From: Deltaproteobacteria bacterium
GTDB lineage: Bacteria; Myxococcota_A; UBA796; UBA2385
Direction of reading: 5' to 3'
Assembly (NCBI GenBank): GCA_018401435.1
Contig: JAGYJW010000023.1
Location: 25,327-89,326 of the forward strand
DNA: 64,000 nucleotides
Every line of letters starts with the position of its first letter. The stretch's first letter is position 1. Made by a program: the position numbers and the translations under genes. This document shows, piece by piece, positions 41,548 to 64,000 of this stretch. Under the pieces are notes generated by a model. It did no database searches. It was not told the DNA's origin and worked only from the letters and a program-made list of their open reading frames with translations.

Positions 41548-41606
41548 GGGCCCCCTCCTAGCCCCGAGCAGGGCCGGGCGCCGCCGGATAGGCCCCAAGA
41601 CAGCCC

Positions 41607-43793
41607 ATGAACGCCCTCATCTACCTTGCCACGGCCGTGCTCTGCGGCATCTACGCGGTCCGCACGCTGGCCCGCGACACCCGGGACCTCACCCGGCGGG
41701 CCTATGCCGTGGTCGCGGGCATCGCCTGCCTGGCCTTTGGGGGCTTCGGCCTCTACCTGGTCACCGGGCAGCCGGTCTTCCGCTACATCCACGCCGGCGC
41801 GGGCAGCTTCCTGCCGCCGGCCATCCTGTGGTTCCTGGACCGCCTGCTGCGGGGCGGGCTGGGCGGCCGCCCGGTCAGGGTCAGCCCCTGGGTGGCCCGG
41901 GCCTGGATGGGGACCGGCGTGGCGGTCGCCCTCTTCATCGGGCTGGACCTCGCGGTCTTCGGGGTGAGCACCTATGGCAGCCCGGCCGAGCTGCTGCTGG
42001 CCCTGCTGGTGCAGACCGGCTTCGGGCTGTGCATCCTGCGCCTGTGGCTGGGCCACGAAGCGGCCGAACAGCGCTACGAGAAGGTGCGCCTGCGCTACCT
42101 GATCGGCCTGTTGGCCGCCGCCACGGCCTTTACCTCCCTCGAACAGCTGCTGCGCTGGTTGGGTCGGGCCGAGATCGCCGCCGGCGCGGTGGACCTGGGG
42201 CCGCTGGCCCGTTCGGTGCTGCTGCAAGGCGCCTTTCCGCCCATCGGCGTGGTGCTGGCCACCCTCTTCCTCTACTTCCTGCACCAGGTCGTTCAACTCT
42301 CGCGCCTGCTGGACCTGCACGAGATCTTCGCCCGCCTGTTCACCCTGGCGGTGGCCTCGCTGGTGCTGGTGGGCATCGAGTCGGTGACCGTCTTCCAGGC
42401 CGACGCCCTCTCCCTCTACCCGGCCCATGGCGCCTTCCAGGTCTTCCTGGCCTCGGCCCTGTTCTTGTCGGTCTATGACCCCCTGCGCCGCCGCATCGAG
42501 GCCCTGGCCGGGGAGTGGTTCAACCGGGCGGGCCGCCGCTTGGAGCTGACCCTGCAGGATGTGGACCGCAACCTGGGGCGGGCGATGAGCCTGGATGGCC
42601 TTGGGGATGAGCTGCTGGAGCGTCTTTTCGCGTCGGGACGGGTGCCGCTGGTCAGCCTCTACCTGTGGGACCACGACCGAGGCGCCTTCCGCCTGGCGCT
42701 GCGCCGCGGCATCGTCGAGCAGCCCTTGATGGAGACCATCGCGGGGAACCCCTACACCGACGGCTTTCAGCAGGGGCAGCCCGCCTATGTGCGCGCCATG
42801 CTGGAGCGCACCGTGCGCCGCAAAGAGGCGGGCCACGAAGAGGCCGCCGCCCGCTTGCGCACCCTGGACGCCATGGACGCCGACCTGTCGCTTTGTGTGC
42901 GGTCGGGGGACCTGGTGGTGGGCTGGCTCAACCTCAAGGCCGAACACTGGATGGACGGCTTCAGCCGCGAAGAGGTCCGGCGTCTGGGCGAGACTGTCGA
43001 TCGCGCCGCCGTTCTCATCGAGAACATCTATAGCTTCGAGCGCCTGAAGGAGCAGCACCGGCTGGCCGCGCTGGGCACCATGGCCGCAGGCCTGGCCCAC
43101 GAGATCCGCAACCCCCTGGCCGGCATCAAAGGCGCCGCCCAATACCTGCAAGAGGTGGCGGAGGAGGCCGATCCCGAGGAGGTCCAGGACTTTGCCGGCG
43201 TCATCACCCGCGAGGTGGACCGCCTGGGTTCGGTGGTCACCCAGTTCCTCGACTATGCGCGCCCACTGTCCATTCGCGACGATGAGATGGACCCGGCCGA
43301 CCTGGCCAGACGCACGGTGGACCTCGTCACCCGCCAGGAGCTGCCCGAAGGGCTGGCGCTGGAGCTTCGCGCCCTCGACGGCCTGCCGCCCTTGCGCGCC
43401 GATGCCGACAAGATCCACCAGGTGCTGCTCAACCTCATCCAGAACGCCATCCAGGCGCTGGACGGGCCCGGTCGCATCTGCGTCGAGATCGCACCAGCGG
43501 GCATGACCCGCTCCGGGGCTGGCGGCGGGGGTCGCAAGGCGGTCGAGATCCGCGTGATTGACGATGGGCCGGGCATCCCGCCCGAGGTGCAGAGCAAGCT
43601 CTTCATCCCCTTCTTCACCACCCGCATCTCGGGCACCGGCCTGGGGCTGGCCATCAGCCGGCGCATCGTCGAGGCCCATGGCGGCGAGCTGGTGGTGCGG
43701 TCCAAGGCGGGCCAGGGCAGCACCTTCACCATCCGGCTGCCCGCGGAGCAAGACCCCCCCGCCGCCCTGGTCAAGGGCTCATCGGCGGCCTGA
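41607..43793 (+). CDS. Multi-TM sensor histidine kinase with a GAF-like domain
   Basis: About 7 N-terminal TM helices are followed by a GAF-like middle segment. The H-box is 'HEIRNPLAGIKG' and the HATPase motif is 'GTGLGLAISRRIVEAHGG'. Confidence 0.88.
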   Translation: MNALIYLATAVLCGIYAVRTLARDTRDLTRRAYAVVAGIACLAFGGFGLYLVTGQPVFRYIHAGAGSFLPPAILWFLDRLLRGGLGGRPVRVSPWVARAWMGTGVAVALFIGLDLAVFGVSTYGSPAELLLALLVQTGFGLCILRLWLGHEAAEQRYEKVRLRYLIGLLAAATAFTSLEQLLRWLGRAEIAAGAVDLGPLARSVLLQGAFPPIGVVLATLFLYFLHQVVQLSRLLDLHEIFARLFTLAVASLVLVGIESVTVFQADALSLYPAHGAFQVFLASALFLSVYDPLRRRIEALAGEWFNRAGRRLELTLQDVDRNLGRAMSLDGLGDELLERLFASGRVPLVSLYLWDHDRGAFRLALRRGIVEQPLMETIAGNPYTDGFQQGQPAYVRAMLERTVRRKEAGHEEAAARLRTLDAMDADLSLCVRSGDLVVGWLNLKAEHWMDGFSREEVRRLGETVDRAAVLIENIYSFERLKEQHRLAALGTMAAGLAHEIRNPLAGIKGAAQYLQEVAEEADPEEVQDFAGVITREVDRLGSVVTQFLDYARPLSIRDDEMDPADLARRTVDLVTRQELPEGLALELRALDGLPPLRADADKIHQVLLNLIQNAIQALDGPGRICVEIAPAGMTRSGAGGGGRKAVEIRVIDDGPGIPPEVQSKLFIPFFTTRISGTGLGLAISRRIVEAHGGELVVRSKAGQGSTFTIRLPAEQDPPAALVKGSSAA

Positions 43794-44423
43794 GCGCCGG
43801 GGCACGCCACGCAGCAAGGCCCCCGCGCCCACCTCCAGGGACCAGGCCCAGCGCTGCGGCAAGGGGGAGAGCGCGCGGGCGAGGGCGGTGAAGCTGCGCT
43901 CCACCCGCGCCTCCGCGGCCAGGGCCCGCGCATCGGGCAAGCCCTGGCGAATCCAGTCGGCCTCGGTGGGCGCGGCCTGGCCCAGCAGGGCCTCGGGCGC
44001 CAGCACGGTGCAAGACAAGGACGTCAAGGCGTCGAAATAGCGGGCGGCGCGGGGCTGGTGGTAGGCCGCGGTGAGCACCAGCAGGCGCTGCCACCCCTGC
44101 CGCCGGGCGAGTGCGGCCGCCTCCAAGGCCTCCTCGCGGGTGCTGCGGGTGATCTGCGCGGAGAGCAGCTGGCCATCCTCCACGCCCAGCTCTGCCAGCA
44201 GCCGCGCCACCAGCGCGCTCCCGGCATCCAGCTGCCCCCGCAGCGGCGCCTCCAGGCTGACGGCTACAGGCACACCCAGGCGCAACAAGGCCGCCGCTGC
44301 CGCCGACCGGGCCTTCAGCTCGGCCAGGCCCCGGCAGGGATCACGCCGCAGCTCCTTGCCCAGGATAAGGACGGCGTCGGCATTCTCGAGCAGATTCAGC
44401 GAGAAGCTGTGGGCGAGGGGCAT
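43779..44423 (-). CDS. YdcF/ElyC (DUF218) family protein
   Basis: Supporting motifs are 'ADAVLILGKEL', 'STREEALEAAALAR' and 'LLVLTAAYHQPRAARYF'. Confidence 0.75.
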   Translation of the reverse strand: MPLAHSFSLNLLENADAVLILGKELRRDPCRGLAELKARSAAAAALLRLGVPVAVSLEAPLRGQLDAGSALVARLLAELGVEDGQLLSAQITRSTREEALEAAALARRQGWQRLLVLTAAYHQPRAARYFDALTSLSCTVLAPEALLGQAAPTEADWIRQGLPDARALAAEARVERSFTALARALSPLPQRWAWSLEVGAGALLRGVPRRSGRR

Positions 44424-44441
44424 GGCCGACAGCGGGCTGGC

Positions 44442-44825
44442 TCAGGCCGGGTCCGAAGGAAAGTCCACCACGGCCTCGTCGTATTGAAGCAGGAGACGGC
44501 GGGCCTTGGCCTCGCTATCTTCGGCCACCAGCAGCACGCCATAGCCGTTCTGGGCCGACAGGGCGTCGCTGAACATGCCGCCGCCGTGCACCACATAGGG
44601 GACGCCTTCGTCGTCGAAGATGGCCGAGATCAGGGCGCGGTCCACGGGCCCATCAAAGATCCGCACCGGCAAGAAGTCTTCGTGGCCCAGATCGTCGCGC
44701 AGGCGCTTCCAGCCCGCCAGCTCGGCGTCGTCCAAGGTGCGACTGCCGCAGTCCGGACAGCGGAGAACGGGCGCTTCGCCCTCGTTCTGGTTGTATTCAG
44801 CATGGCAGGAGACGCAGGTCTGCAT
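44442..44825 (-). CDS. Small zinc-ribbon + DUF2007-like protein (hypothetical)
   Basis: The sequence 'MQTCVSCHAEY...LRCPDCGS' (CxxC...CxxC) is followed by a beta-alpha-beta segment resembling DUF2007. The ATG is at 44825. Confidence 0.55.
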   Translation of the reverse strand: MQTCVSCHAEYNQNEGEAPVLRCPDCGSRTLDDAELAGWKRLRDDLGHEDFLPVRIFDGPVDRALISAIFDDEGVPYVVHGGGMFSDALSAQNGYGVLLVAEDSEAKARRLLLQYDEAVVDFPSDPA

Positions 44826-44887
44826 GGGGGCTCCACAAGGGCGATCGGGCGGCCTCATGATCCTAGCCCGCTGATCCGTAGCCTGGG

Positions 44888-45505
44888 GTGATGCTCACCT
44901 TCAGCCTGATCTTCGCCATGCTCACGGCAGCCCACGCCGACCCCATCTGGGGTGCGGAGGCCTTGCGGGTGCTGCCCGACGCCTTCGCGGTGGAGCTGGC
45001 GCTGGAGCGCACCGGGCTGGCCCGCCGCGAGACCAGCGCCCTCTACGGTGCCGTCGCGGATGGCAGCCGGGTGGACGGCAGCCGGGCGCGCATCTCGGCC
45101 ATCGGCTGGTTGCGGCTGGACGGGGTCGAGGTGGTGAGCCCGCTGGAGACCAAGGCCCTGGACGAGCGGCGCCAGTGCGCCAAGGTCCGCGGCCACGACC
45201 CGGTGCCGGGTGGCCGGCAGATCGTGGACTTTCATGGGCGGCCCGAGGCCGCGGAAGGTCCGCCCCTGGAGGGCCCGCCCACCCTGGTGCTGGGCAGCAA
45301 TGCCGACGGCGAGTATGCGCTGGTGCAGCTTCTTCCCGGCGATGTCCTGCGGGTGACCGACGCCACCCGCCCCGGCCAGGAGCCCTGGGAGCACATCGAG
45401 CTCACCCGGGACAGCCAGCGCCTGACCCTGGTGCGCCGGGGCCGCGGCGCCCAGGTCTGCTACGAGCCCGACACCGAGATGCGCGCGGGCTGGCTGCCGG
45501 ATTGA
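44888..45505 (+). CDS. Secreted hypothetical protein
   Basis: The signal peptide is 'MLTFSLIFAMLTAAHA'. I recognise no family. The codon usage looks coding, while the antisense 567-aa ORF is junk-like. Confidence 0.55.
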   Translation: MMLTFSLIFAMLTAAHADPIWGAEALRVLPDAFAVELALERTGLARRETSALYGAVADGSRVDGSRARISAIGWLRLDGVEVVSPLETKALDERRQCAKVRGHDPVPGGRQIVDFHGRPEAAEGPPLEGPPTLVLGSNADGEYALVQLLPGDVLRVTDATRPGQEPWEHIELTRDSQRLTLVRRGRGAQVCYEPDTEMRAGWLPD

Positions 45506-45535
45506 CCGCCCCCCAGCCGTGGGTGAGGAGGGGCC

Positions 45536-46708
45536 ATGAAGCGGCACCTCGACACCCGACTCGTACACGGACCGGCCGATGGCCACAGCGAGCCCAGCGG
45601 CGCGGTGGTGGGCCCGGTCCACCTCAGCAGCAGCTGGCGCATGGGCTCGGATCCCGACCGCCCCCTGCGCTACCAGCGCTTGGGCAACGCGCCGGACCAG
45701 CTGGATCTCGAGGCCCGCATCGCCGACCTCTGCGGGGGGGAGCGCGCCCTGCTCTTTGCCAGCGGCATGGCGGCCATCAGCAGCACCCTGCTCGCGATAT
45801 TGCAGGCGGGCGACGCGCTGCTGGTCTCGCGCACCCTCTATGGCGGCACCCAGGCCCTGCTGGACCGGGATCTCGCCCGCTTCGGCGTGCGCCATCAGGC
45901 GGTGGACGCCACCCGCCCCGAGCAGTGGGCGGCGGCCTTGACCCCGAATTGCAGGGTCTTCTATGTGGAGGCCCTCAGCAACCCCCTGCTGGAGGTGCCC
46001 GAGCTGGAGGCGGTCGTCGCCTTCTGCCGCGCCCATGGCCTGCGGTCGGTCATCGACGCCACCTTTGCCACCCCCCTGGGGCTGCGTCCGCTGGACCTGG
46101 GCTTCGATGTGGAGCTGCACAGCGCGACCAAGGCCATGGCGGGCCACTCCGACTTGATCGCGGGGGTCGCTATCGGCCAGGATGAAGTGCTGGCGCCCAT
46201 TTCCAGCGAGCGCGACCGCCTGGGTGGCCACCTCGACCCCCTCTCGGCCTTCTTGTTGGGCCGGGGGCTGAAGACCCTGAGCCTGCGCTTTGGGCGACAG
46301 AGCGCCAACGCCCTGGCCCTGGCCCGGGCGTTGGAGGGTCATCCCGCCCTGGTGGAGGTCTGCCACCCCGGCCTGCCCCGCCACCCCAGCCACCTGCGGG
46401 CCCAGCGCCTGATCCCCCAGAGCGGCGGCATGCTGGCCCTGCGCTGCCACAGCGGGGCGCAGGCCGAGGCCGCATTGGCCGCCTTGCGCATCGCCCTGTC
46501 CGCCCCCAGCCTGGGCGGCGTCGAGACCCTGGTGAGCCGGCCGGTCGCCACCTCTCACGCCGGGCTGGACGAGGCCGCGCAGCGGGCCCTCGGCCTGGAC
46601 CCGGGCCTGCTGCGGGTGAGCTGCGGCATCGAAGACGCCGACGACCTGATCGCGGACTTCCGACAGGCCCTGGACGCGGCCTCAGCCCTCGACGGCCTGC
46701 ACGCTTAG
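45536..46708 (+). CDS. Cys/Met-metabolism PLP-dependent enzyme (cystathionine gamma-synthase/beta-lyase/gamma-lyase family)
   Basis: A GAGGAGGGG Shine-Dalgarno is present. Supporting motifs are 'TRLVHG', 'LYGGT' and 'HSATKAMAGHSDLIAG' (PLP Lys). Confidence 0.88.
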   Translation: MKRHLDTRLVHGPADGHSEPSGAVVGPVHLSSSWRMGSDPDRPLRYQRLGNAPDQLDLEARIADLCGGERALLFASGMAAISSTLLAILQAGDALLVSRTLYGGTQALLDRDLARFGVRHQAVDATRPEQWAAALTPNCRVFYVEALSNPLLEVPELEAVVAFCRAHGLRSVIDATFATPLGLRPLDLGFDVELHSATKAMAGHSDLIAGVAIGQDEVLAPISSERDRLGGHLDPLSAFLLGRGLKTLSLRFGRQSANALALARALEGHPALVEVCHPGLPRHPSHLRAQRLIPQSGGMLALRCHSGAQAEAALAALRIALSAPSLGGVETLVSRPVATSHAGLDEAAQRALGLDPGLLRVSCGIEDADDLIADFRQALDAASALDGLHA

Positions 46709-53877: not shown

Positions 53878-56800
53878 ATGAGGCTGGAGGACCTGGCTGG
53901 GCTCGACCTCAACCGCCTCGTCGTGCTCGCCGTGCTGCTCGAGGAGGGAGGCGTCTCCCCCGCAGCCCGACGGCTGGGCCGGACCCAGTCGGCTGTGAGT
54001 CACACCCTGGCCCAGCTCCGGGAGGACCTCGGCGACGACCTGCTGGTCCGGGTGGGGCGGGGCATGGCGCCCACTCCCTTCGCGGACCGCCTCCGGTTTC
54101 CCCTGATGACCGTGCTCGGGCAGCTCGGGGCCCTGACCCGTGGGGCCGCCTTCGACCCGGCGACGGCGCGCCGAACCTTCCGCGTGGGCTGGAGTGACTA
54201 CCTGCAGCTCGTCGTCGGAGGCAGCTGGCTCCCCCCGCTGCGGATGGCGGCCCCGGGGATCGACCTGGTGGCCGTCGCACCGCCGCCGGGGGGCCCGGCA
54301 CCCCTGCTGGCCGACGGCCGCCTGGACCTCGCCTTCGACGTCGGCTTGTCCGACGACGACACCCTCAAGGGCCGGCTGCTGTTCGAAGACGCGTTCGCCA
54401 CCCTGGCTGGTGCTCGGGGAGGCTTCGCCCCCGGACCGCTCAGCCTGGAGCAGGTCGGCGAGCGGCTCTCCGTCGCGCGGGCGCTGCGTGAGAATGGGCT
54501 TGACGTGCTTGATGCCGACGAGGTGGCCTCGCGTTTGCGCCACGCCGAACCCGGGCTGATCGCCCTGCTGGACGGGGCGCCGCCGGTGCTCGACAACCCC
54601 GACCAGCCCACCCTTCGCGTGGCCCGCGCCGACGAGCGGGCCCGGGTGCGGGTGGTCTGCGGAAAGCCCTTGCCCGACCCGGCGCTGCCGGCCAACCTGC
54701 CCTCCCTCAGCCGCTTGGGACGCAGCGTCTTTGCGGCGCTGCCCGCGCCCATCCTCGCCGTAGATCTCATCTATGATGCCCGCCGCTGGCGCATCCTCGA
54801 CCTGCGCACCCTGGCGTTGGCCGACCTGGCTCCGGCCGAACAGGCCGAGCTCTACCAGGCCGCAGCGGCCTTGCCCGACCGCAAGGGCAATGGCCGCAAA
54901 GAGCCCCACCTGCCCAGCCTCGCCGTCCTGTGGGCCGGGCGCTACCCAGGCTCTGCATCCTCGGCAGAGACCCTGGACAAGCTGGCACAGGTGGGGGCGC
55001 GCATGGGCCTGCGCGTCGAGATGATCGGCCCCGATGATCTCGACCGGCTGGGCGATCACGACGCGCTCTTCATTCGCATGCTGACCGGCGTGAACCAGCC
55101 GGCCTGGCGCTTTGCCACCCGGGCCCAGGCCCTGGGCATGCCCGTCATCGACCAGCCCGACGCCATTGTGCGTTGCAGCAACAAGGTCTACCTCTTTGAA
55201 TTGCTGCGTCGCAGCGGACTGCCCATGCCGGCGACGGTCGTGGTGGACCGGGCCACCACCTGGGAGGAGCTGGTGGAGGCCCTGGGCGCGCCGGTGGTGC
55301 TCAAGGACCCCGACGGCTCCTTCTCCACCGGGGTCTTCAAGCTGGAGTCGGCCGAGGATCTGCGGCAGCGCATGGACAGCCTGATGGAGCGCTCCCCGCT
55401 GCTCATCGCCCAGGCCTGGCTGCCCACCAGCTTTGACTGGCGGGTGGGCGTGCTGGGGCGCAAGCCGGTGTGGGCCGCCCGCTACCATATGGTGACCGGA
55501 CACTGGCAGATCAGCGCCAGCCACGGCCACGCGGTGCGCTTTGGCCGGGTGGAGGCCGTGCCCCTGGACCAGGCCCCCAAGGACGTCGTGCGCCTTGCAT
55601 CCCGGGCCGCCGACCTCATCGGAGATGGGCTCTTTGGGGTCGATCTCAAAGAGACCCCCGACGGGCCGGTGGTGATTGAGGTCAACGACAACCCCAACCT
55701 CGACCTGGGCTATGAGGACGCCGCCAGCGGCGACAGCATCTACGAGGCCATCGTGGGTTGGTTTCTGCAGCGTCTGCGGGCCGACGCGCCCAGAGCGGCC
55801 CAAAAGATCCGCAGCGCCGCCGAGCTACCCGCGCTGCAGCGGCCCATCGGGCGCGCCTTGCCCGCCCGCAGCCAGCCCTACTCTGCCTATGAGGTGGTGG
55901 GGCTCGAGCTGGAATATTCGCTGGTGGACCGCGATCTCAACGTGGTGCACCTGGCGCCAGACGTGCTCGCGGGCCTGGCCGGGCGGCCCTGCTCCGACGT
56001 GGTGCTGGGACGGGTCGGGATCTCCAACGAGATCATGGAGCATGTCATCGAGATCAAGAACCAGGTACCCCATGGGTCCCTGGCCCGGGCCGAGGCCGAC
56101 CTGGTCGAAGGCGTGCGCCGGGTCGCCTTGCTGCTCGACCAGCGCCACCGCGCCCGCATGTTGCCCGGCGGCATGCACCCCTGGTTCCGCCCCGAAGGCG
56201 CGCGCACCTGGCGCCGCAGCAACCGCCGCATCTATGACACCTACACCCGACTCTTCAATGTGCAGACCCACGGCTGGGCCAATGTGCAGGCGGTGCACGT
56301 GAACCTGCCCCTGGGCAGCCCCGAAGAGGCCACCGCGATGATGAACGCGGCCCGCCTGCTGGTGCCCTACCTGCCGGCCCTGGCGGCAAGCTCTCCGCTG
56401 GTAGAAGGCGAGATGACCGGCCGGGTGGACAACCGGGTGGCCTGGCTGCTGGAGCACCAGGCGCGCATTCCCGAGAGCATGGCCCGCCTGGTGCCCGAGC
56501 CCCTGCGGGCCTATGGCGACTACAAGAAGAACGTGCTGGCGCCCATGTACGCCGCGGTGGACCGCCTGCCCGACGCCGAGGCCCTGCGCGCCGAATTCCT
56601 CAACGCCCGAGGCGCGGTCTTCAAGGCCAGCCGGGCCTCCATGGAGCTGCGCATCCTGGATGTGCAGGAGTGCGTCGCCATGGACATGGCCATCGCCTGC
56701 TTCGTGCGCCGGGCCTTGCGCGATCTGGCCCAGGACCTCAGCAGCCTGGCACCGGCCGATCAAGGGCTGCTGGAGCGGGATCTGCTGGCGGTGGCCACCG

Positions 56801-57132
56801 GGGGCAGCCGCGCGCGGGTGATGGCCCCTCACCTGCCCTTGGCGGCCCAACGCGCCGCTGACGGCGGCCTGTCGGCCCAGCAGGTGCTGGCCTGGCACCT
56901 GGAGCGGGTCAGCCACAGGGCTAAGGACGAACGGGCCTACCTCGACCGGGTGGCCGACGTGGTGGCCCAAGGCAGCCTGTCCGAGCGCATCCTGGCGCGG
57001 CTGACGCCCCTGGCCGACGACGAGAGCGGCTTCACCGAGGCCGCCCGCGGCATCTACATCGAGCTGGCCGACTGCCTGGTGGACAACCGCCCCTGGACCG
57101 GCCGCAGCCATGCCTCCCCGGAGCGTCCATGA
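53878..57132 (+). CDS. Triple fusion: LysR-type HTH regulator + RimK-like ATP-grasp ligase + GCS2 (YbdK-like) carboxylate-amine ligase
   Basis: A single 1084-aa ORF has a strong Shine-Dalgarno. Residues 1-~260 are LysR-like ('LNRLVVLAVLLEEGGVSPAARRLGRTQSAVSHTLAQLRE'). Residues ~347-631 are a RimK ATP-grasp ('APVVLKDPDGSFSTGVFKLES', 'VIEVNDNPNL'). Residues ~668-1084 are GCS2 ('VVGLELEYSLVD', 'AVHVNLPL'). There is no stop, and no nearby ATG, at either junction. Confidence 0.8.
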   Translation: MRLEDLAGLDLNRLVVLAVLLEEGGVSPAARRLGRTQSAVSHTLAQLREDLGDDLLVRVGRGMAPTPFADRLRFPLMTVLGQLGALTRGAAFDPATARRTFRVGWSDYLQLVVGGSWLPPLRMAAPGIDLVAVAPPPGGPAPLLADGRLDLAFDVGLSDDDTLKGRLLFEDAFATLAGARGGFAPGPLSLEQVGERLSVARALRENGLDVLDADEVASRLRHAEPGLIALLDGAPPVLDNPDQPTLRVARADERARVRVVCGKPLPDPALPANLPSLSRLGRSVFAALPAPILAVDLIYDARRWRILDLRTLALADLAPAEQAELYQAAAALPDRKGNGRKEPHLPSLAVLWAGRYPGSASSAETLDKLAQVGARMGLRVEMIGPDDLDRLGDHDALFIRMLTGVNQPAWRFATRAQALGMPVIDQPDAIVRCSNKVYLFELLRRSGLPMPATVVVDRATTWEELVEALGAPVVLKDPDGSFSTGVFKLESAEDLRQRMDSLMERSPLLIAQAWLPTSFDWRVGVLGRKPVWAARYHMVTGHWQISASHGHAVRFGRVEAVPLDQAPKDVVRLASRAADLIGDGLFGVDLKETPDGPVVIEVNDNPNLDLGYEDAASGDSIYEAIVGWFLQRLRADAPRAAQKIRSAAELPALQRPIGRALPARSQPYSAYEVVGLELEYSLVDRDLNVVHLAPDVLAGLAGRPCSDVVLGRVGISNEIMEHVIEIKNQVPHGSLARAEADLVEGVRRVALLLDQRHRARMLPGGMHPWFRPEGARTWRRSNRRIYDTYTRLFNVQTHGWANVQAVHVNLPLGSPEEATAMMNAARLLVPYLPALAASSPLVEGEMTGRVDNRVAWLLEHQARIPESMARLVPEPLRAYGDYKKNVLAPMYAAVDRLPDAEALRAEFLNARGAVFKASRASMELRILDVQECVAMDMAIACFVRRALRDLAQDLSSLAPADQGLLERDLLAVATGGSRARVMAPHLPLAAQRAADGGLSAQQVLAWHLERVSHRAKDERAYLDRVADVVAQGSLSERILARLTPLADDESGFTEAARGIYIELADCLVDNRPWTGRSHASPERP

Positions 57133-59516
57133 TGACCCGCCTGACCACCGGCGCCGCCCTGCTGCTGTGCGCCTGCAGCGATGGTGGGCCCGCCTCCACC
57201 CCGGCCCCCACGGCGAAGGCCCCCAACATCCTGGTGGTGACCCTGGACACCACCCGCCGGGACTCGCTGAGCCCCTATGGCGGCCCCAAGGAGGGCACCC
57301 CGGTGCTGGAGCGCATCGCCCGCCAGGGCGCCCGCTTCGACCGTGCCTATACCGTCACGCCGCTCACGATTCCGGCCCACTCGTCTCTGCACACCGGGCT
57401 CCTTCCGCCCCGACACGGCGTGCGGGACAATGGCGACCAGTTCTTGTCCGACAGCGCCCTCACCCTGGCCGAACAACTCAAGGGCGCCGGCTATGCAACC
57501 ATGGCCTCCGTGGGCGCCGAGGTCACCAGCCACCATTGGGGCTTTGCCCAGGGCTTTGACGCCTATTTTGACGATATGGGCGAGGCCGCCGAGGGCGAGC
57601 GCAACCGCTGGCGCGTCGAACGCCGCGGCGACAAGGTGGTGGATGACGCCTTGGGTTGGCTGCAGAGCCGGGCCGGCCAGGAGGCGCCCTTCTTCGCTTG
57701 GGTTCACCTCTTTGACGCCCACCACCCCTACGAGCCTCCCGACAGCTTTCGGGCCCTCTTCCCCGACCGCCCCTACCTGGGCGAGATCGCCTTCGCCGAC
57801 GCCCAGCTGGGCCGGGTGCTGACCGAGCTGGAGCGCCAGGATCCGGGCCTGATGAACACCTGGATCTTCGTGCTGGCCGATCACGGCGAGAGCATGGGGG
57901 CCCATGGCGAAGGCATGCACGGCGTGCTGCTTTACGACGAGACCACCGCCATCCCCCTGGTGGTGCGCCCGGCCGGAGGCCTTCCGACCCCCCGCATCAT
58001 CCAGGCCCCTGCCAGCATCGTGGACATCCTGCCCACCGCCCTGGCTGCCGCCGGCCTGCCTCTGCCCCAGGACATCGACGGCCAGGCCCTCTCGGGCTGG
58101 TTGAGCCCCGAGCCGGCCCCGCCCGAAGGCGCGATGGACCGGGTGGTCTATATGGAGAGCCTCTATGGCTGGCACCACTACGGGTGGGCCCCCCAGCGCG
58201 CGGTGGCCGAAGGCCAATACAAGCTCATCGATACGCCCACCACCGAGCTTTACGCCAAGGCCGACGGCGCCGAGGCCACAAACCTCGCAGCGACCCAACC
58301 CGAGCAGCGCCAGCGCCTGCTGGACCGCATGGACGCCCTGGCTGCCGGCCTGCTGCCCCTCGAAGGGGCCGCGTCTTCGGCCTCGCTGAGCCCCGACCGC
58401 ATCGCCCAGCTCGAAGCCCTTGGCTATGTCACCACCAACGCAGGCAGCAGCGGGGACGTGCCCTGGCGGGACGCCAGCCTGTCGGATCCCGTCGCGCGCC
58501 TGCCCATCCTCAAGCGCCTCGAAGAGGTGCGAAAGGCCCAGCAATCCGGCGATCTCAACCTCGCCCGCAAGGTGGCCGAGCAGATCCTGGCCGAGGAGCC
58601 CGGCCTGGTCGATCCCGCCCGCACCCTGGCCGGCATCCTGCTGCGGCTGGGCGATCTGGACGCGGCCGAGAAGGTGGTGGCCGACCTCGACGCCCGGCAG
58701 CCCTCCAGCAACAACAAGGCCATGCTGGCCAGCATCCACATGCGGCGGGCCGATCTGGACGGCGCCATCACGCTCTATGGGGCCGCCTTGGAGATGGATC
58801 CCTATGTGGCCGGCACCTGGACCCCCTATCTGCACGCCCTGTGGATCAAGGGGGATCTGTCCCGCCTGAATGAAGAGCTGGCGCGGGTTCACGCGCTGAT
58901 TCCCGACCACGCCATCGCCCAGGGCATGGGGGGGGTGGTGATGGCCATGCAGCGCCAATGCGGCCCCGCCGTTGCAACCTTGCAGCGGGCCATCGCCGCA
59001 GAGCCCATGCAACCCTTTGTGCACCACGCCCTGGGCATGTGCCAGCGGGCCATGGGCGAGGTGGACGAGGCCGAGACCAACCTGCTCGAAGAGGTGGACC
59101 ACTACCCGCCCGCCCTGCCCAGCCGCCGGGCGCTGGTGGAGATCTACACCGGCCAGAAGCGCTATGACGAGCAGCTGGCGCAGCTCTTGGCCATTGAGGC
59201 CAAGGAGCCTGCCCACCCCCTCACCGCCCACAGCAAGGGGCAGGTGCTCTTCAACCTGGGCCGCTATGCAGAGTCGCGCCCGGTGGTGGAACGCTGCATG
59301 GAGCTGGCGCCGGACTACCCCGGCTGCGTGATGCTCTATGCCAATGTGCTCAAGAAGCTGGGCGAGGAGGAGAAGGCCGTCGAGACCTACCACCGGGCCC
59401 TGGCCATGGCCGACCAGCGCCCGCCCACCGCCGCGGCCGAAGAGCCCGCAATCACCGCCCCCGAAGCGGGGGCCGCCGACCCCATCGCCGACCCCACCCG
59501 CTACTGGAAGGAGTAG
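57129..59516 (+). CDS. Alkaline-phosphatase-superfamily ('sulfatase' Pfam-type) lipoprotein with a Thr nucleophile and C-terminal TPR repeats
   Basis: The lipobox is 'LLLCAC'. The metal and nucleophile context is 'NILVVTLDTTRRD' and 'TPLTIPAHSSLHTGLLPPRHG'. The C-terminal ~330 aa are TPR-like. An ATGA overlap couples it to the upstream fusion gene. Confidence 0.82.
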   Translation: MMTRLTTGAALLLCACSDGGPASTPAPTAKAPNILVVTLDTTRRDSLSPYGGPKEGTPVLERIARQGARFDRAYTVTPLTIPAHSSLHTGLLPPRHGVRDNGDQFLSDSALTLAEQLKGAGYATMASVGAEVTSHHWGFAQGFDAYFDDMGEAAEGERNRWRVERRGDKVVDDALGWLQSRAGQEAPFFAWVHLFDAHHPYEPPDSFRALFPDRPYLGEIAFADAQLGRVLTELERQDPGLMNTWIFVLADHGESMGAHGEGMHGVLLYDETTAIPLVVRPAGGLPTPRIIQAPASIVDILPTALAAAGLPLPQDIDGQALSGWLSPEPAPPEGAMDRVVYMESLYGWHHYGWAPQRAVAEGQYKLIDTPTTELYAKADGAEATNLAATQPEQRQRLLDRMDALAAGLLPLEGAASSASLSPDRIAQLEALGYVTTNAGSSGDVPWRDASLSDPVARLPILKRLEEVRKAQQSGDLNLARKVAEQILAEEPGLVDPARTLAGILLRLGDLDAAEKVVADLDARQPSSNNKAMLASIHMRRADLDGAITLYGAALEMDPYVAGTWTPYLHALWIKGDLSRLNEELARVHALIPDHAIAQGMGGVVMAMQRQCGPAVATLQRAIAAEPMQPFVHHALGMCQRAMGEVDEAETNLLEEVDHYPPALPSRRALVEIYTGQKRYDEQLAQLLAIEAKEPAHPLTAHSKGQVLFNLGRYAESRPVVERCMELAPDYPGCVMLYANVLKKLGEEEKAVETYHRALAMADQRPPTAAAEEPAITAPEAGAADPIADPTRYWKE

Positions 59517-59551
59517 TTTGGCGGTGCGCGAGAGGCGCGCATGCCAACCCA

Positions 59552-59584
59552 GTTCAACAGCGCGCAAATAGCGCACCGTTGAAC
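59552..59584 (+). terminator. Hairpin downstream of the TPR-lipoprotein gene
   Basis: GTTCAAC (59552-59558) pairs with GTTGAAC (59578-59584). An inner GCGC/GCGC pairing surrounds an AAATA loop. No U-tract follows. Confidence 0.3.
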
Positions 59585-59659
59585 CAGCCCGATATTGGCG
59601 GGGGCCTTGCCCGCACCGCGCCAAGGGCGCTTCCCCGGCGTCCTCTTCGAGGCCGCCGG

Positions 59660-59712
59660 GCGGCCGGCCCACATGCGCCGGCCGCGTCCAACGAATCGGG
59701 ATTTCCGATTCG
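59660..59712 (-). terminator. Two GC-rich hairpins immediately downstream of cysK
   Basis: CGAATCGG (59692-59699) pairs with CCGATTCG (59705-59712) around a 5-nt loop, 5 nt after the cysK TAG. GCGGCCGGC (59660-59668) pairs with GCCGGCCGC (59677-59685). Confidence 0.35.
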
Positions 59713-59717
59713 CTGAA

Positions 59718-60650
59718 CTAGCCAAAGAGCCCGGTGCTGAGGTAGCGCTCGCCGGTGCTGGCGCACAAGAAGGCCACATTGCGCCCGGGGCCGAGCTTTC
59801 GGGCGAGCTGACGGGCCACCACGAAGGCCGCCCCCGACGAGATGCCCACCAGCAGGCCCTCAGCCCGGGCCAGGGCCCGGCTGCCCTCAATGGCGTGCGC
59901 GTCGGGAAGGGCCACCACGGCGTCATAGGCGGCCCGGTCCAACACCGGCGGCACAAAGCCCGCGCCGATGCCCTGGATGCCATGAAGCCCCGGCGCGCCC
60001 CCGGTGAGCACCGCGCTGCCTTCGGGCTCCACCACCCAGATCTGGATGTCGGGGAAGGCTGCCCGCAACACCGGCGCCACCCCGCTCACCGTGCCCCCGG
60101 TTCCCACGCCGCAAACAAAGCCGTGCAGCCCATCCTCGGCGAATGCCGTCACGAGTTCGGGCCCCGTTCCAGCGCGGTGGGCGCCGGGGTTGGCGGGGTT
60201 GGCGAATTGGCTGGGATAGAAGGCGTCTTCGACCCGCTCGCCAATGCGCAGACTGGCGTCGATGGCCCCGCGCATGGCGTCGGCCGCCGGGGTCAAGACG
60301 CACTCGGCCCCATAGGCCTCCAACAGGCGCCGGCGCTCGATGGAGAGGTCATCGGGCATGGTCAGGATCAGGCGGTAGCCCAAGGCGGCGCAGGCCATGG
60401 CCAACCCCACGCCCGTATTGCCGCTGGTGGCCTCGATGATGGTGCTGCGTCCCGCTTGAATGCGCCCCTCGGCCTCGGCCTGGCGCAGCATGGCCAGGGC
60501 GATGCGGTCCTTGACCGAGCCGCCGGGATTCATGCTCTCCAACTTGGCGAAGATGTGCGCGCCGCGCGGATCCCAGGCCCGGCGCAGCCGCAGCACCGGC
60601 GTCTGGCCGATGAGGTCGAGGATGCTGTCCACCCGCGACGACCCGCTCAT
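59718..60650 (-). CDS. cysK: Cysteine synthase (O-acetylserine sulfhydrylase)
   Basis: Supporting motifs are '[16 protein letters not shown]' (PLP Lys), '[12 protein letters not shown]' and '[10 protein letters not shown]'. Confidence 0.9.
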
Positions 60651-61405
60651 TTGCGCTCCCGAAGCGGGCGCAGGCGGCTGGCCTTGCGAGCGGCCTCGCC
60701 CTCGGCGGGCGGCGGCGCGCCCCCGCGCACCATGGGCTCCTCGTCGCCGGCGGACCCCAGGGGCGGCAGGCCCTTGATGGCGCGAAGCTCGGCCTCCACC
60801 GCCATGAGTCGCTCCATGACCGGGTCGTCGGCCCCCACCGTCGCATCGGGGCTCCAGTGGCGGTCCTTGGCGCCCGCGGGATCCGGCGCGCTGGTCGCGG
60901 GCCGGCCCGGGATGCCCACCACCGTGGTGCCGGGGGCCACATCCCGCACCACCACGCTGTTGGCGCCGATGCGCGCCCCCCTGCCCACGGCGATGGGCCC
61001 CAGCAGCTTGGCGCCCGCGCCCACCACCACATCCTCACCCAGGGTGGGGTGGCGCTTCTCTTGCCGCCAGCTGGTGCCCCCCAGGGTGACCCCATGGTAG
61101 AGCGTGCAGTTGTCGCCGATCACGCTGGTCTCGCCGATCACCACGCCCATGCCGTGGTCGATGAAGACCCCGCCGCCGATCTGTGCGCCGGGGTGGATCT
61201 CCACGCCGGTGAGCCCCCGCCCCAGGTGGCTCAGGGACCGGGCCGTCACGCGGTGGCCGCGCGCCCACAGCCGCGACGACAGGCGGTGCAGCAACAAGGC
61301 GTGAAAGCCCGGGTAGTTGAGCAAGACCTCCAGGCGACTGCCCGCCGCGGGATCGCGGTCGAGCACGGCTTGAAGGTCCCGGCGGAGGTGCTGGAGCAGG
61401 GCCAT
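60647..61405 (-). CDS. cysE: Serine O-acetyltransferase with an extended C-terminal tail
   Basis: The left-handed beta-helix hexapeptide repeats read '[44 protein letters not shown]'. An ATGA overlap couples it to cysK. Confidence 0.9.
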
Positions 61406-61495
61406 GGCCGCCTCCTACCCGGATGCGGCGACGCGGGCAGCCGACCGGGGGGCGGCCCTCGCGTTATCCGGTCAGGTCTGAACATTGAGGACCCC

Positions 61496-63676
61496 ATGGA
61501 ATACCGCGGACTGCAGCTCGACCCCTTCCAGCAACAGGCCATCGAGGCCTTGCAGGCGGGGGAGAGCGTGCTGGTGTCTGCCCCCACCGGCACCGGAAAG
61601 ACCGTGGTGGCCGACTGGATGGTCGAGCGCACCCTGGCTGAGGGTGGCGAGGTCATCTACACCGCCCCCATCAAGGCCCTCAGCAACCAGAAATTCCGCG
61701 ACTATTGCAAGCTGCTGGGCGAGGACCGCGTCGGTCTGGTCACCGGCGACCTGGTCATCCGCCGCGAGGCCCCCTGCCGGGTGATGACCACCGAGATCCT
61801 GCGCAACATGCTGCTGGGCGGCGATCCACTGCCCAATCTGCGCGCCGTGATCATCGACGAGATCCACTTCCTTGATGACAACGAGCGCGGCACAGTCTGG
61901 GAGGAGGTGCTCATCTACCTGCACCAGCGGGTGCAGATCGTGGGCCTGTCCGCCACCCTGTCCAACCTGCAGGAATTCGCCGAGTGGCTGAGCTTTGTGC
62001 GCGAGCGCACGGTGCGGGTCATCGAAGAGCACAAGCGCGCCGTGCCGCTGACCTTCTTGATCGCCAGCCGCGAGGGCCAACTCAAGACGCCGGCCAATAT
62101 GGACCGCTTCTACAAGGAGTGGCAACACAAGAACGCCTACGCGCTGAAGCGGGTCGAGAGCAAGGGCGAGGACGGCGGCGCACGCACCCGCTACGGCCGG
62201 GGACGCGGCGGCGCTGGCGGCGGCGGGCAGGGGCGCAACCGGCGCGGTGACAAAGAGAAGGTGGGCAGCGTCACCCGTCACGGCGACGTCTTTCGGCTGC
62301 TGTGGCCCGATCTCTCCCCCTACCTCTTCTTCACCTTCTCGCGCCGGGACGCCGAGAATATGGCCAAGGGCCTGGCGGGGGGCTTGGAGTGGCCCCTGCT
62401 CGAAAAGGACGAATACGACCAGGTTGTCGCGCGTCTGGACGCCTTCCGCAAAGAGCCCGGCGCCGAGGCCGCCCTCGACGACGAGCTGGCCCGCATGCTG
62501 CGCGGGGGCGTGGGTTTTCACCATGCCGGCCTGCACGTCATGCTCAAGGCCCTGGTGGAGGAGCTCTACGAGCGCAAGCTCATCCGGGTGCTCTATTGCA
62601 CCGGCACCTTCGCCCTGGGCATCAACATGCCCGCCCGCACCGCCGTCTTTGACGGCCTGATGCGCTTTGACGGCAAGCAGATGATCAACCTGCCCAGCCG
62701 GGAATTCATGCAGATGGCCGGCCGCGCCGGTCGCCGGGGCATGGACGAGGAGGGTCTGGTGGTCGTGCGCTGCGATATCGATGACTGGGCTGAGTTGGCT
62801 CCCCAACTCAAGCAGTATCTGCAGGGCACCCTGGAGCCCGTGCGCAGCCGCTTCTCGCTCAGCTTCAACTCGGTGGTGAACCTGGTCGAGCGCCACCCCC
62901 CCGAGCGCATCCGGTCCCTGGTCGAGCGCAGCTTCCTGGCCTGGCACCGGGCCCGCCAGGGCGCCGAAGACGCCGTGCAGGTCGAGATCATGCGCGAGAA
63001 GCTGGAGGCTGCTGGCTGGACGGAGGACGGGGCGCCGCCCCGCAACCTGCGCCACGACATCAAGCGCCTGCGCCGCATCGAGAAGCGCGCTGAGGACGCC
63101 CAGGAGCAGACCTGGCGCGAGTTCACCGACAAGGTCGATTTCCTCAAGCGCTGGGGCTACCTCGAAGACGACGGCAGCTTCAACGCCGGCGCCCGCATCC
63201 TCAAGCACATCCAGATCAGCGAGGTCTTCGTCACCGAGCTGTTCCTGGCCGGCATCTTCGACGAGCTGGATCTGCCCGACCTCTTTGGCGTGCTCTGCGG
63301 CCTCTGCGCCAACCTGCCCCGGGGGGCCATCGTGCCGGCGGCCAAGCGCTACCGCGAGCTGGCCGGCCGCATCGAAAAGATCCGCCGCAGCGAGATCGTC
63401 ACCGCGTCCGAGGCCCTGTCGGGCACCGAGGTCACCTGGGATGGTGGGCTCATCCCCTTCGGCCGCTGGTGGGCCGAAGGAAAGACCCTGCCCGAGCTGA
63501 TGGGCCAGCTGCACACCACCACCGACGCCAGCGGCGACCTGGTGGGCGCCTTTCGCCGGGCCAAGGATCTGGCCGGTCAGCTCCGCGGCGCCTGGGAGGG
63601 CTTCCCCGAGCAGATCCGCGCGGTGGACGGCCTGATTCGCAGCGTCACCCGCGACGAGGTCGAGGTGGTGGACTGA
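61496..63676 (+). CDS. Ski2-like (HelY/Mtr4-type) DEAD/DEAH-box SF2 helicase
   Basis: Supporting motifs are 'APTGTGKTVVA', 'IIDEIHFLDD', 'SATLSN' and 'MAGRAGRRGMD', plus a C-terminal DSHCT-like region. The ATG is at 61496. Confidence 0.88.
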   Translation: MEYRGLQLDPFQQQAIEALQAGESVLVSAPTGTGKTVVADWMVERTLAEGGEVIYTAPIKALSNQKFRDYCKLLGEDRVGLVTGDLVIRREAPCRVMTTEILRNMLLGGDPLPNLRAVIIDEIHFLDDNERGTVWEEVLIYLHQRVQIVGLSATLSNLQEFAEWLSFVRERTVRVIEEHKRAVPLTFLIASREGQLKTPANMDRFYKEWQHKNAYALKRVESKGEDGGARTRYGRGRGGAGGGGQGRNRRGDKEKVGSVTRHGDVFRLLWPDLSPYLFFTFSRRDAENMAKGLAGGLEWPLLEKDEYDQVVARLDAFRKEPGAEAALDDELARMLRGGVGFHHAGLHVMLKALVEELYERKLIRVLYCTGTFALGINMPARTAVFDGLMRFDGKQMINLPSREFMQMAGRAGRRGMDEEGLVVVRCDIDDWAELAPQLKQYLQGTLEPVRSRFSLSFNSVVNLVERHPPERIRSLVERSFLAWHRARQGAEDAVQVEIMREKLEAAGWTEDGAPPRNLRHDIKRLRRIEKRAEDAQEQTWREFTDKVDFLKRWGYLEDDGSFNAGARILKHIQISEVFVTELFLAGIFDELDLPDLFGVLCGLCANLPRGAIVPAAKRYRELAGRIEKIRRSEIVTASEALSGTEVTWDGGLIPFGRWWAEGKTLPELMGQLHTTTDASGDLVGAFRRAKDLAGQLRGAWEGFPEQIRAVDGLIRSVTRDEVEVVD

Positions 63677-63694
63677 GAGGGGAGCCCGCCCCCC

Positions 63695-64000
63695 TCACAA
63701 GACGATGGTGGCCGAGCCCAGGGCGCCGAATGCGGTCATGCCCTGGATGGTGCTGCCATCCACCGGGCTGATGGTCTCGTTGACATTCCACCGGTAGAGG
63801 TAGATGGCGGCCAGGTCATACTCGTAGAAGGCCCCGAAATTGCTGGGGGGCACGACGAAGTAGCCGCTGTCATTGGCCACGCAGAAGATCTCGCCCGACA
63901 GGCTGCCCGACCAGCTGTCAAAGACCAGGATGTCGATGACCACGGCATCGGAGATGCCGGTGGGCGCCCAAGAGAAGCCCGCCCCCGAGCCCACGGACAT
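63695..64000 (-). CDS. C-terminal fragment of a hypothetical protein (gene continues beyond the window)
   Basis: The ORF is open to the window edge, has coding-like composition and ends '...GALGSATIVL'. I recognise no family. Confidence 0.4.
   Translation of the reverse strand: MSVGSGAGFSWAPTGISDAVVIDILVFDSWSGSLSGEIFCVANDSGYFVVPPSNFGAFYEYDLAAIYLYRWNVNETISPVDGSTIQGMTAFGALGSATIVL

Follow-up and report, generated by a model that had tools for sequence, protein, structure and literature searches.

The window analysed here, a stretch of 64,000 nucleotides (nt) from contig JAGYJW010000023.1 of a Deltaproteobacteria bacterium (assembly GCA_018401435.1), carries on its forward strand an open reading frame (ORF) of 1084 amino acids (aa) at 53878-57132, in which the N-terminal part of a LysR-type transcriptional regulator (LTTR) is followed by two amide-bond ligase modules, one of the RimK-like ATP-grasp type and one of the GCS2/YbdK type. 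The gene is very probably a chimera, recent and confined to this lineage, that arose in vivo when a microhomology mediated illegitimate recombination by deletion or rearrangement; in this event LysR codons 1-192 were joined to codons 193-1084, comprising the remainder of an RLAN domain, the ATP-grasp module and the GCS2 module. It is probably a genomic accident and not an evolved sensor-regulator-enzyme; nothing points to an adaptive fusion.

The relatives of the protein were sought in 5.8 billion protein clusters, and an exhaustive phmmer scan was made of 1.84 billion representative proteins. The whole-protein search returned approximately 49 proteins of 918-1089 aa (mostly 930-990) with RLAN, RimK and GCS2 domains at 44-66% identity, and among the 50 close matches HTH_1 was present in the window's own protein only. 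The family matched the query from aa ~176-193 onward only; aa 193-1084 aligned end to end with the proteins of ~930-990 aa, with identical module order, and the conserved first ~75-79 residues of these relatives (…VVNLC…YLS.GWYVSLLAEARGG…) had no counterpart in the query. When aa 1-185 were used alone, ordinary LysR proteins of 301-318 aa (HTH_1 plus LysR_substrate) were recovered at up to 95% identity, and codons 1-192 matched standalone LysR genes of close relatives at 95-98% identity. By phmmer, full-length ligase relatives aligned from query aa ~175 and their own aa ~60, the sole match over query aa 1-194 was a LysR protein of 310 aa, and no protein spanning both the LysR and the ligase parts was found among the representatives. 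The LysR relatives (P0051-P0067) were 304-310 aa long where complete and had HTH_1 and LysR_substrate where Pfam domains were recorded. The 90% cluster of P0051 held six members from different assemblies; the complete ones were standalone proteins of 304-310 aa, and three shorter ones (228-271 aa) look incomplete. Used as a tblastn query against the window, P0051 matched over its aa 1-192 only (94.8% identity).

The ligase family was found at no fewer than 592 genomic loci (at least 592) in one-genome-per-species contigs, in Gemmatimonadota, Planctomycetota, Myxococcota-like metagenome-assembled genomes, Gammaproteobacteria and others. A survey of 86 loci showed the typical arrangement to be a same-strand, tightly packed operon in which a gene for a C39_2-like papain-fold peptidase is followed by RLAN-ATP-grasp, GCS2 and FGase genes (loci L003-L006, L010-L014, L016-L018, L021-L025, L029, L031-L032, L034-L036, L039, L041-L042, L045, L047-L048, L052-L054, L057, L065, L075, L077-L078, L080, L083, L085 and L088). 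ATP-grasp and GCS2 were encoded by separate genes at 31 loci and fused at 14; RLAN-ATP-grasp stood alone at 40, and a single locus, on a short contig, had GCS2 only. Where both ligase modules were present, the C39-like peptidase accompanied them at 39/45 loci and FGase at 27/45. With 14 fused and 31 split loci, the ATP-grasp-GCS2 fusion is a normal, recurrent variant; at the LysR-ligase junction of the chimera, separate genes are the rule in relatives. A LysR gene lay nearby at 3/86 ligase loci, always on the opposite strand, and was fused to the ligase at none of the 86. The sequence-only reading, an earlier annotation made from the letters of the window without database searches, knew of no described fusion of such a ligase pair to a LysR regulator, and none appeared in these loci or among the 1.84 billion representatives.

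The LysR loci of relatives share a different conserved unit, Cupin_7 – F420_oxidored – ADH_zinc ⇄ LysR, where contigs reach that far, and downstream of LysR these loci hold various unrelated genes and no ligase gene. Since the unit is conserved in relatives without the ligase, LysR is the regulator of the divergent oxidoreductase unit and not the ligase's own. The sequence-only reading had taken it for the ligases' 'own' regulator; in every relative it is a standalone gene beside that unit. The divergent intergenic region of the window (53772-53877) contains the LysR gene's own promoter region and a Shine-Dalgarno sequence, AGGAGGGGG, at 53867-53875. It aligned with the LysR upstream region of L007, Shine-Dalgarno sequence and ATG included, and the promoter region, Shine-Dalgarno sequence and start codon of the fusion gene are therefore those of the LysR gene. 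It is from these that the ligase ORF is now read.

The fusion junction (54445-54457, + strand) was placed by comparison with four independent relatives of the LysR locus. By blastn a single colinear block (52118-54471) was obtained, with identities of 88.8% for L007, 88.2% for L092 and 77.7% for L008; L091 was 98.0% identical at the nucleotide level over 53961-54471, and homology ended at 54468-54471 in all four. The breakpoint lies at nt 54453/54454, directly after codon Q192. The 9 nt before it, CTGGAGCAG (L190-E191-Q192, nt 54445-54453), are a microhomology common to the LysR parent and RLAN-family genes; the equivalent codons of RLAN relatives are CTCGAGCAG, CTGGAGGCG or CTCCAGCAG. In the DNA alignment, identity to the L007 LysR gene is gone within the next few bases. 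After Q192 the standalone LysR relatives read on as '…LEQFAAAPHLLVAPQGG…' to residue 310, a continuation that includes TTCGCAGCGGCT; the window reads '…LEQVGERLSVARALRENGLDVLD…', which is the ligase family sequence following its own '…LLEQ'.

The codons preceding the breakpoint were 15/24 identical between LysR and the RLAN gene of L003. When P0051 was compared by BLASTP with the intact ligase protein P0012, the top-scoring segment paired LysR residues 166-192 with ligase residues 51-79 (16/29 identical, E=0.16) and ended at LEQ. The crossover thus falls where the one stretch of chance similarity ends, and in the same frame, as homology-facilitated illegitimate recombination would produce. It would have used the 9-nt CTGGAGCAG repeat, at the end of the only patch of resemblance between two unrelated genes, and would have placed an RLAN-ATP-grasp-GCS2 amidoligase gene, from about its codon 80, in frame behind LysR codon 192. 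The simplest origin would be a single microhomology-mediated deletion that began in the LysR gene and ended in a ligase operon lying downstream in the same orientation; with it would also have gone the LysR 3' end, the C39-like peptidase gene, any genes in between and the RLAN 5' end. Deeper homology between the two parents, in which RLAN would be cryptically homologous to the LysR effector domain, had been hinted at by a DntR alignment running to aa 277 and by weak similarity beyond the junction in the alignment; it was rejected on the hhalign comparison of the LysR and ligase family profiles, which gave a probability of 0.04%.

Displaced partners of the two parents were searched for by tblastn with the LysR C-terminus, three RLAN N-termini, C39-like peptidases, FGases, and the Cupin_7, MopE and TPR neighbours of L007. 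These partner queries matched the window only at LysR aa 1-192 and at a HutG-like FGase, and no C39-like peptidase, RLAN N-terminus, LysR C-terminus or ligase-type FGase was found in the 64 kb. The presence in the window of a reciprocal recombination product or of displaced partners was thereby rejected. The HutG-like FGase, the only one in the window, is encoded on the opposite strand and is only 29% identical to the ligase-linked FGases, and for this reason it is not taken for the missing operon partner.

The same junction could have arisen during assembly, if the contig wrongly joins the LysR and ligase loci of one genome or of a co-assembled related genome; no cell would then carry the fusion gene. 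In favour of this, the window is apparently metagenome-derived and the protein is on record from one NCBI contig, 104 kb long; the singleton architecture has a junction that occurs in one assembly only, and within about 5 kb synteny is lost on either side of the ligase fragment and at the left edge of the LysR block. A De Bruijn assembler, however, needs an exact k-mer of at least ~21 nt, and the nearest available RLAN genes share only the 9 nt, preceded by codons with just the 15/24 identity given above. Composition across the junction was uniform, with no Ns and no step, and tetranucleotide profiles correlated at r >=0.96 between all segments. A random mis-join accounts less well than recombination for an in-frame join at the best local protein similarity. 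On the right-hand side, moreover, the ligase/sulfatase junction was exactly reproduced by an independent assembly (Logan contig L090, SRR14300309), which is identical to the window across that overlap. A mis-assembly is accordingly considered unlikely. The uniform GC and tetranucleotide profiles also led to the rejection of a chimera between different organisms.

The chimera, on the recombination reading, is very young, because L091 is 98.0% identical in nucleotide sequence up to the junction and then continues as LysR. The dN/dS of the LysR fragment was 0.27, compared with 0.20-0.23 for the neighbouring genes. Relaxed selection on the fragment was considered and set aside: these values show none, and they are uninformative given an unfused relative that is 98% identical. 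Since the fusion is so recent, neither dN/dS nor the intactness of the enzyme modules can separate a gene that is still selected from one too young to decay. L091 itself (1-2170, Logan ERR13319468) carries deletions that remove the 5' end of the ADH gene, the intergenic promoter and LysR codons 1-28. Because the 5' end and promoter of LysR have been lost independently in this closest relative, LysR looks dispensable, and the LysR unit is suggested to be dispensable and decaying in the lineage; L091 is a short Logan contig, possibly collapsed. Parts of its F420 and Cupin genes are also absent.

The reading frame of the chimera was examined directly. It starts with ATG behind the Shine-Dalgarno sequence at 53867-53875, and along its whole length GC3 was 0.76-0.98 and GC2 0.32-0.58. 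As this pattern holds over the full length, the gene is one continuous coding frame and not a chance ORF of GC-rich DNA. The uninterrupted 1084-aa frame with a strong Shine-Dalgarno sequence, as described in the sequence-only reading, was thus upheld by the ATG, by AGGAGGGGG and by codon-position GC. No in-frame start codon was present between aa 332 and 372, which agrees with the earlier statement that none precedes the first strand of the ATP-grasp domain. No internal start with a convincing Shine-Dalgarno sequence was found after the junction, and a separate ligase product from such a start was ruled out on this ground. Two ORFs on the opposite strand overlap the fusion gene, one of 666 aa at 53803-55803 and one of 428 aa at 55825-57111; because codon-position GC supports the + strand, they are regarded as chance ORFs of DNA of ~72% GC.

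Four segments were distinguished in the protein. The LysR-derived segment (aa 1-192; 53878-54453, + strand) contains the winged helix-turn-helix (wHTH; aa 11-69, nt 53908-54084), the linker helix and ~100 residues from the start of the effector domain. The RLAN remainder (aa 193-335; 54454-54882, +) consists of a variable linker and the C-terminal third of the domain, the N-terminal core of ~79 aa being gone. The RimK-like ATP-grasp module (aa ~345-635; 54910-55782, +) and the GCS2/YbdK-type carboxylate-amine ligase module (aa ~666-1084; 55873-57129, +) follow. Pfam matches were HTH_1 (PF00126) at aa 11-69 with 61.1 bits (cut-off 26.6), RimK (PF08443) at aa 434-609 with 45.1 bits (cut-off 21; RimK, ATP-grasp_3 and other ATP-grasp matches together aa 433-610), GCS2 (PF04107) at aa 706-954 with 87.8 bits (cut-off 21), and a partial RLAN match (PF14401) at aa 275-327, equal to model positions 97-149 of 150. 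LysR_substrate (PF03466) gave no match in the 1084-aa protein even at E<=1, and the best NCBIfam LysR model, of 298 positions, covered aa 5-179 only. Against NCBIfam, TIGR00768 (RimK type) scored 89.6 bits under a cut-off of 143.4, PRK10446 36 against 331 and TIGR02050 (YbdK type) 54 against 176, the GCS2 module falling under every equivalog and subfamily cut-off. An AlphaFold2 (AF2) model of the chimera was compared with known structures using Foldseek; the ATP-grasp module matched RimK (5ZK6/7QYR) at a target TM-score (TMt) of ~0.77 and the GCS2 module the YbdK-type structure 1TT4 at 0.78. The predicted local distance difference test (pLDDT) score was 74-98 downstream of the junction, and mostly >85 in the ATP-grasp module. 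For aa 1-180 the model was uninformative: there was no alignment depth there, so the low pLDDT of this part is no evidence on folding.

The domain content given in the sequence-only reading, LysR helix-turn-helix plus RimK ATP-grasp plus GCS2, was therefore borne out by Pfam, and for both ligase modules by Foldseek as well. Its LysR end at ~54660 was wrong, the real end being nt 54453 (aa 192), and the effector-domain-like region that it extended to that point has no LysR_substrate match; aa 193-335 are the RLAN remainder, which had been missed.

Both parental domains at the junction were cut. LysR_substrate spans aa 97-299 in P0051, of which the chimera keeps aa 97-192; residues 193-310 are missing, that is, 118 of 310 residues and about half of the effector domain. 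With regulatory subdomain II (RD-II) and the return strands of RD-I gone, the known LTTR fold leaves no way to form an effector cleft, and we infer that the product cannot sense an effector as a LysR protein does. What it might still do, at most, is dimerise through the wHTH and linker helix and occupy the intergenic operator, which would repress its own gene constitutively. The half effector domain left behind probably makes the protein less stable. On the ligase side, the RLAN match of intact P0012 covers model positions 14-147, compared with 97-149 in the chimera. Residues 1-79 of P0012 form a confident α/β unit in its AF2 model (pLDDT 82-93; strands 7-10, 23-26, 42-45 and 69-71, helices 27-31, 55-65 and 74-79). 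This whole unit is gone from the chimera, and with it 8 family-invariant residues and 17 residues conserved at >=80%. Downstream of the junction 167/170 family-invariant residues are kept, the 3 misses being conservative and within the range of intact members. To judge from their sequences, the ATP-grasp and GCS2 modules, whose catalytic and invariant residues are all reported as kept, may retain residual amide-ligase activity. The chimera is thus neither a complete LTTR, having no effector domain, nor a complete RLAN system, having neither the RLAN core nor the partner genes.

The sequence-only reading had proposed a one-polypeptide sensor, regulator and synthetase, and an evolved or newly functional regulator-enzyme was weighed in that light. 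In such a protein the LysR module would tether or regulate the ligases, or the substrate state of the ligases would control DNA binding. The intact frame and strong Shine-Dalgarno sequence, the complete wHTH and linker helix, the 167/170 invariant residues kept in the ATP-grasp and GCS2 modules and a LysR-fragment dN/dS that is not raised would all be expected of it, and LysR 'LAGARGG..P' happens to restore invariant RLAN positions (A179, R180, G181 and P185). The lack of decay, however, says little when an unfused relative is 98% identical in nucleotide sequence; halving of the effector domain leaves no sensor, the RLAN core is deleted, and the two halves cannot complement each other as one fold because the family profiles are unrelated. 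The ortholog of the LysR part, moreover, regulates the oxidoreductase unit, and no ligase-linked regulator is orthologous to it; the window lacks the operon partners, and a second example was absent from the 1.84e9 representatives and the 86 loci. Separate genes in orthologs, which the sequence-only reading had itself named as refuting, are what is seen at the LysR-ligase junction. With the effector domain cut at 192/310, RLAN cut and the protein a singleton, the proposal is left unsupported, and a functional regulator-enzyme of this kind is regarded as very improbable. The same low probability is given to a newborn 'trigger enzyme', in which a LysR wHTH-linker dimer, now attached to an oligomeric RimK-like/GCS2 ligase, would still bind the operator at 53772-53877, and the substrate or the oligomeric state of the ligase would modulate transcription of the divergent oxidoreductase genes, or the DNA would localise the ligase. 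If true, it would be the birth of a domain architecture within about 2% divergence of the unfused ancestor.

Several observations weigh against a recent accidental fusion or limit what can be said of its history. The junction was seen in a single assembly, and the exact fusion protein occurs on no other contig; a codon-degenerate junction pattern gave 0 matches in Joint Genome Institute (JGI) metagenome contigs, and the SRR14300309 Logan contig stops 117 bp upstream of the sulfatase gene, short of the junction. The join is in frame, the enzyme modules are conserved as in intact members (167/170), and the LysR fragment shows no excess of amino-acid change; these three features are compatible with recency and also with ongoing selection on the chimera. 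No relative of the ligase part is closer than 66% identity, and the parental ligase locus, like the sufficiency of one deletion, cannot be reconstructed at that distance. Because synteny is lost at either end of the ligase fragment, there may have been more than one event.

Compared with known systems, the C-terminal 892 aa represent a damaged RLAN-ATP-grasp-GCS2 ligase, of a known family already described computationally, and the N-terminal 192 aa are a fragment of an ordinary LTTR; the LysR join is new and probably accidental. The chimera has exchanged the first ~79 residues of the family proteins for 192 LysR residues; their loci have a C39-like peptidase gene upstream and FGase downstream, whereas the chimera has neither in the window and has a LysR promoter instead. 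Proteins with RLAN, RimK and GCS2 are annotated as 'glutathione synthase/RimK-type ligase-like ATP-grasp enzyme / gamma-glutamyl:cysteine ligase YbdK' or as 'RimK-like ATPgrasp N-terminal domain-containing protein'. With its nearest LTTR orthologs, the standalone proteins P0051 (310 aa) and P0443 (recorded as 271 aa), the chimera shares the 192 N-terminal residues, the wHTH, the promoter, the Shine-Dalgarno sequence and the divergent oxidoreductase genes; it lacks residues 193-310 and carries ~890 foreign residues. The nearest solved LTTR structure is DntR (1UTB).

The ATP-grasp fold and motifs are shared with RimK, the S6 poly-alpha-L-glutamate ligase (4IWX, 5ZK6, 7QYR), and with LysX/ArgX. 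The chimera is not a RimK ortholog, since it scores below the cut-offs and has an RLAN N-terminal domain and an attached GCS2 module. The fold of YbdK and other GCS2 ligases (1TT4; EgtA-type gamma-glutamyl ligases) is likewise shared, but the GCS2 module of the chimera sits behind ATP-grasp and is below the cut-offs. GshF/GshAB, the bifunctional glutathione synthetase, combines a Glu-Cys-ligase-type module and an ATP-grasp ligase on one chain. Compared at the family level only, it differs in its opposite domain order, its GshA-type first module and its lack of RLAN. PutA, BirA and NadR are evolved regulator-enzyme fusions whose architectures are conserved across many genomes with domains intact. 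The chimera resembles them in having a DNA-binding domain on an enzyme chain, and differs in being a singleton with both junction domains truncated.

Full-text literature searches found no experimental study of the RLAN-ATP-grasp-GCS2 family or operon. Iyer, Abhiman, Burroughs and Aravind reportedly predicted such amidoligase systems (Mol Biosyst, 2009), and the link to them drawn in the sequence-only reading is judged correct. RimK is an α-L-Glu ligase, GCS2 enzymes are γ-Glu-amine ligases and FGase is an N-acyl-Glu amidohydrolase. From the family chemistries of RimK, GCS2, FGase and papain-fold peptidases, together with that reported prediction, the intact system is predicted to assemble and trim a small peptide, or a peptide tag, that contains Glu. 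The widespread operon of C39-like peptidase, RLAN-ATP-grasp, GCS2 and FGase genes is the better biological target; the window is a poor model for this system, because its copy is damaged. For architecture-based discovery the case is a caution: one recent deletion, cutting into the domain on either side of the junction, can create a striking three-function polypeptide, and such accidental architectures are quickly exposed once close relatives are compared. If the junction is confirmed in reads, it will provide a natural in-frame fusion at a 9-nt microhomology, with a 98%-identical unfused relative for comparison, useful for the study of the birth and survival of multidomain proteins.

To the left of the fusion gene, the classical LysR arrangement of divergent oxidoreductase neighbours is present in the window and in L007, L008 and L092. 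The divergence from two oxidoreductase genes noted earlier was verified by Pfam, which identified ADH_zinc and F420_oxidored. The first gene encodes an ADH_zinc_N/quinone-oxidoreductase-like protein of 323 aa (52800-53771, - strand; ADH_zinc_N, ADH_N and ADH_zinc_N_2) and diverges from the LysR start. The mechanically called ORF, which begins at a TTG at 53843 (52800-53843, -, 347 aa), is over-extended; because 323-aa orthologs hold the same divergent position in L007, L008 and L092, the ADH start is assigned to the ATG at 53771, leaving an intergenic region of 106 bp. The second gene (52118-52750, -) encodes an F420_oxidored-type NADP oxidoreductase of 210 aa (PF03807, 66.6 bits) and forms the left end of the shared 2.35-kb block; blastn homology to L007, L092 and L091 begins at 52118. 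Divergence within the block (52118-54453) was uneven. Relative to L007, dS was 0.10 for the LysR fragment, 0.29 for ADH and 0.37 for F420; relative to the window, L091 was 98% identical in LysR and about 85% in ADH. This unevenness suggests a recombination mosaic among related lineages.

Further to the left, a HutF-like Amidohydro_1 gene adjoins the HutG-like FGase gene (263 bits) at 49734-51948 (-), forming a histidine-utilisation-like pair. Just upstream of these hut-like genes is a gene for a 446-aa protein with an eCIS_core (DUF4157-type) domain (48369-49709, -). A SelA (L-seryl-tRNA selenium transferase) gene lies at 40192-41598 (-), and the use of selenocysteine in the host organism is therefore implied; near it are genes for a histidine kinase, a DUF218 protein, a Cys/Met pyridoxal-phosphate enzyme and XseA. 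Pfam scans of the genes at 40192-51948 and 60647-63676 showed no mobile elements (transposase or integrase) near the rearranged locus.

To the right, the fusion gene is followed by a gene for a protein with Sulfatase and TPR domains (57129-59516, +), the start of which overlaps the fusion stop (ATGA, 57129-57132). The SRR14300309 Logan contig is 99.9% identical to the window over 57012-59577. Core synteny with more distant relatives starts at the sulfatase gene and comprises sulfatase-TPR, cysK, cysE, DEAD helicase and TIG genes. The window from 57129 to 64000 is syntenic with L093 and L094 at 60-78% aa identity. In both of these a small hypothetical gene, and no ligase, stands upstream of the sulfatase gene, and in L093 a housekeeping cluster (rpmF, acpP, fabF, glyA and rib genes) is also located upstream of it.

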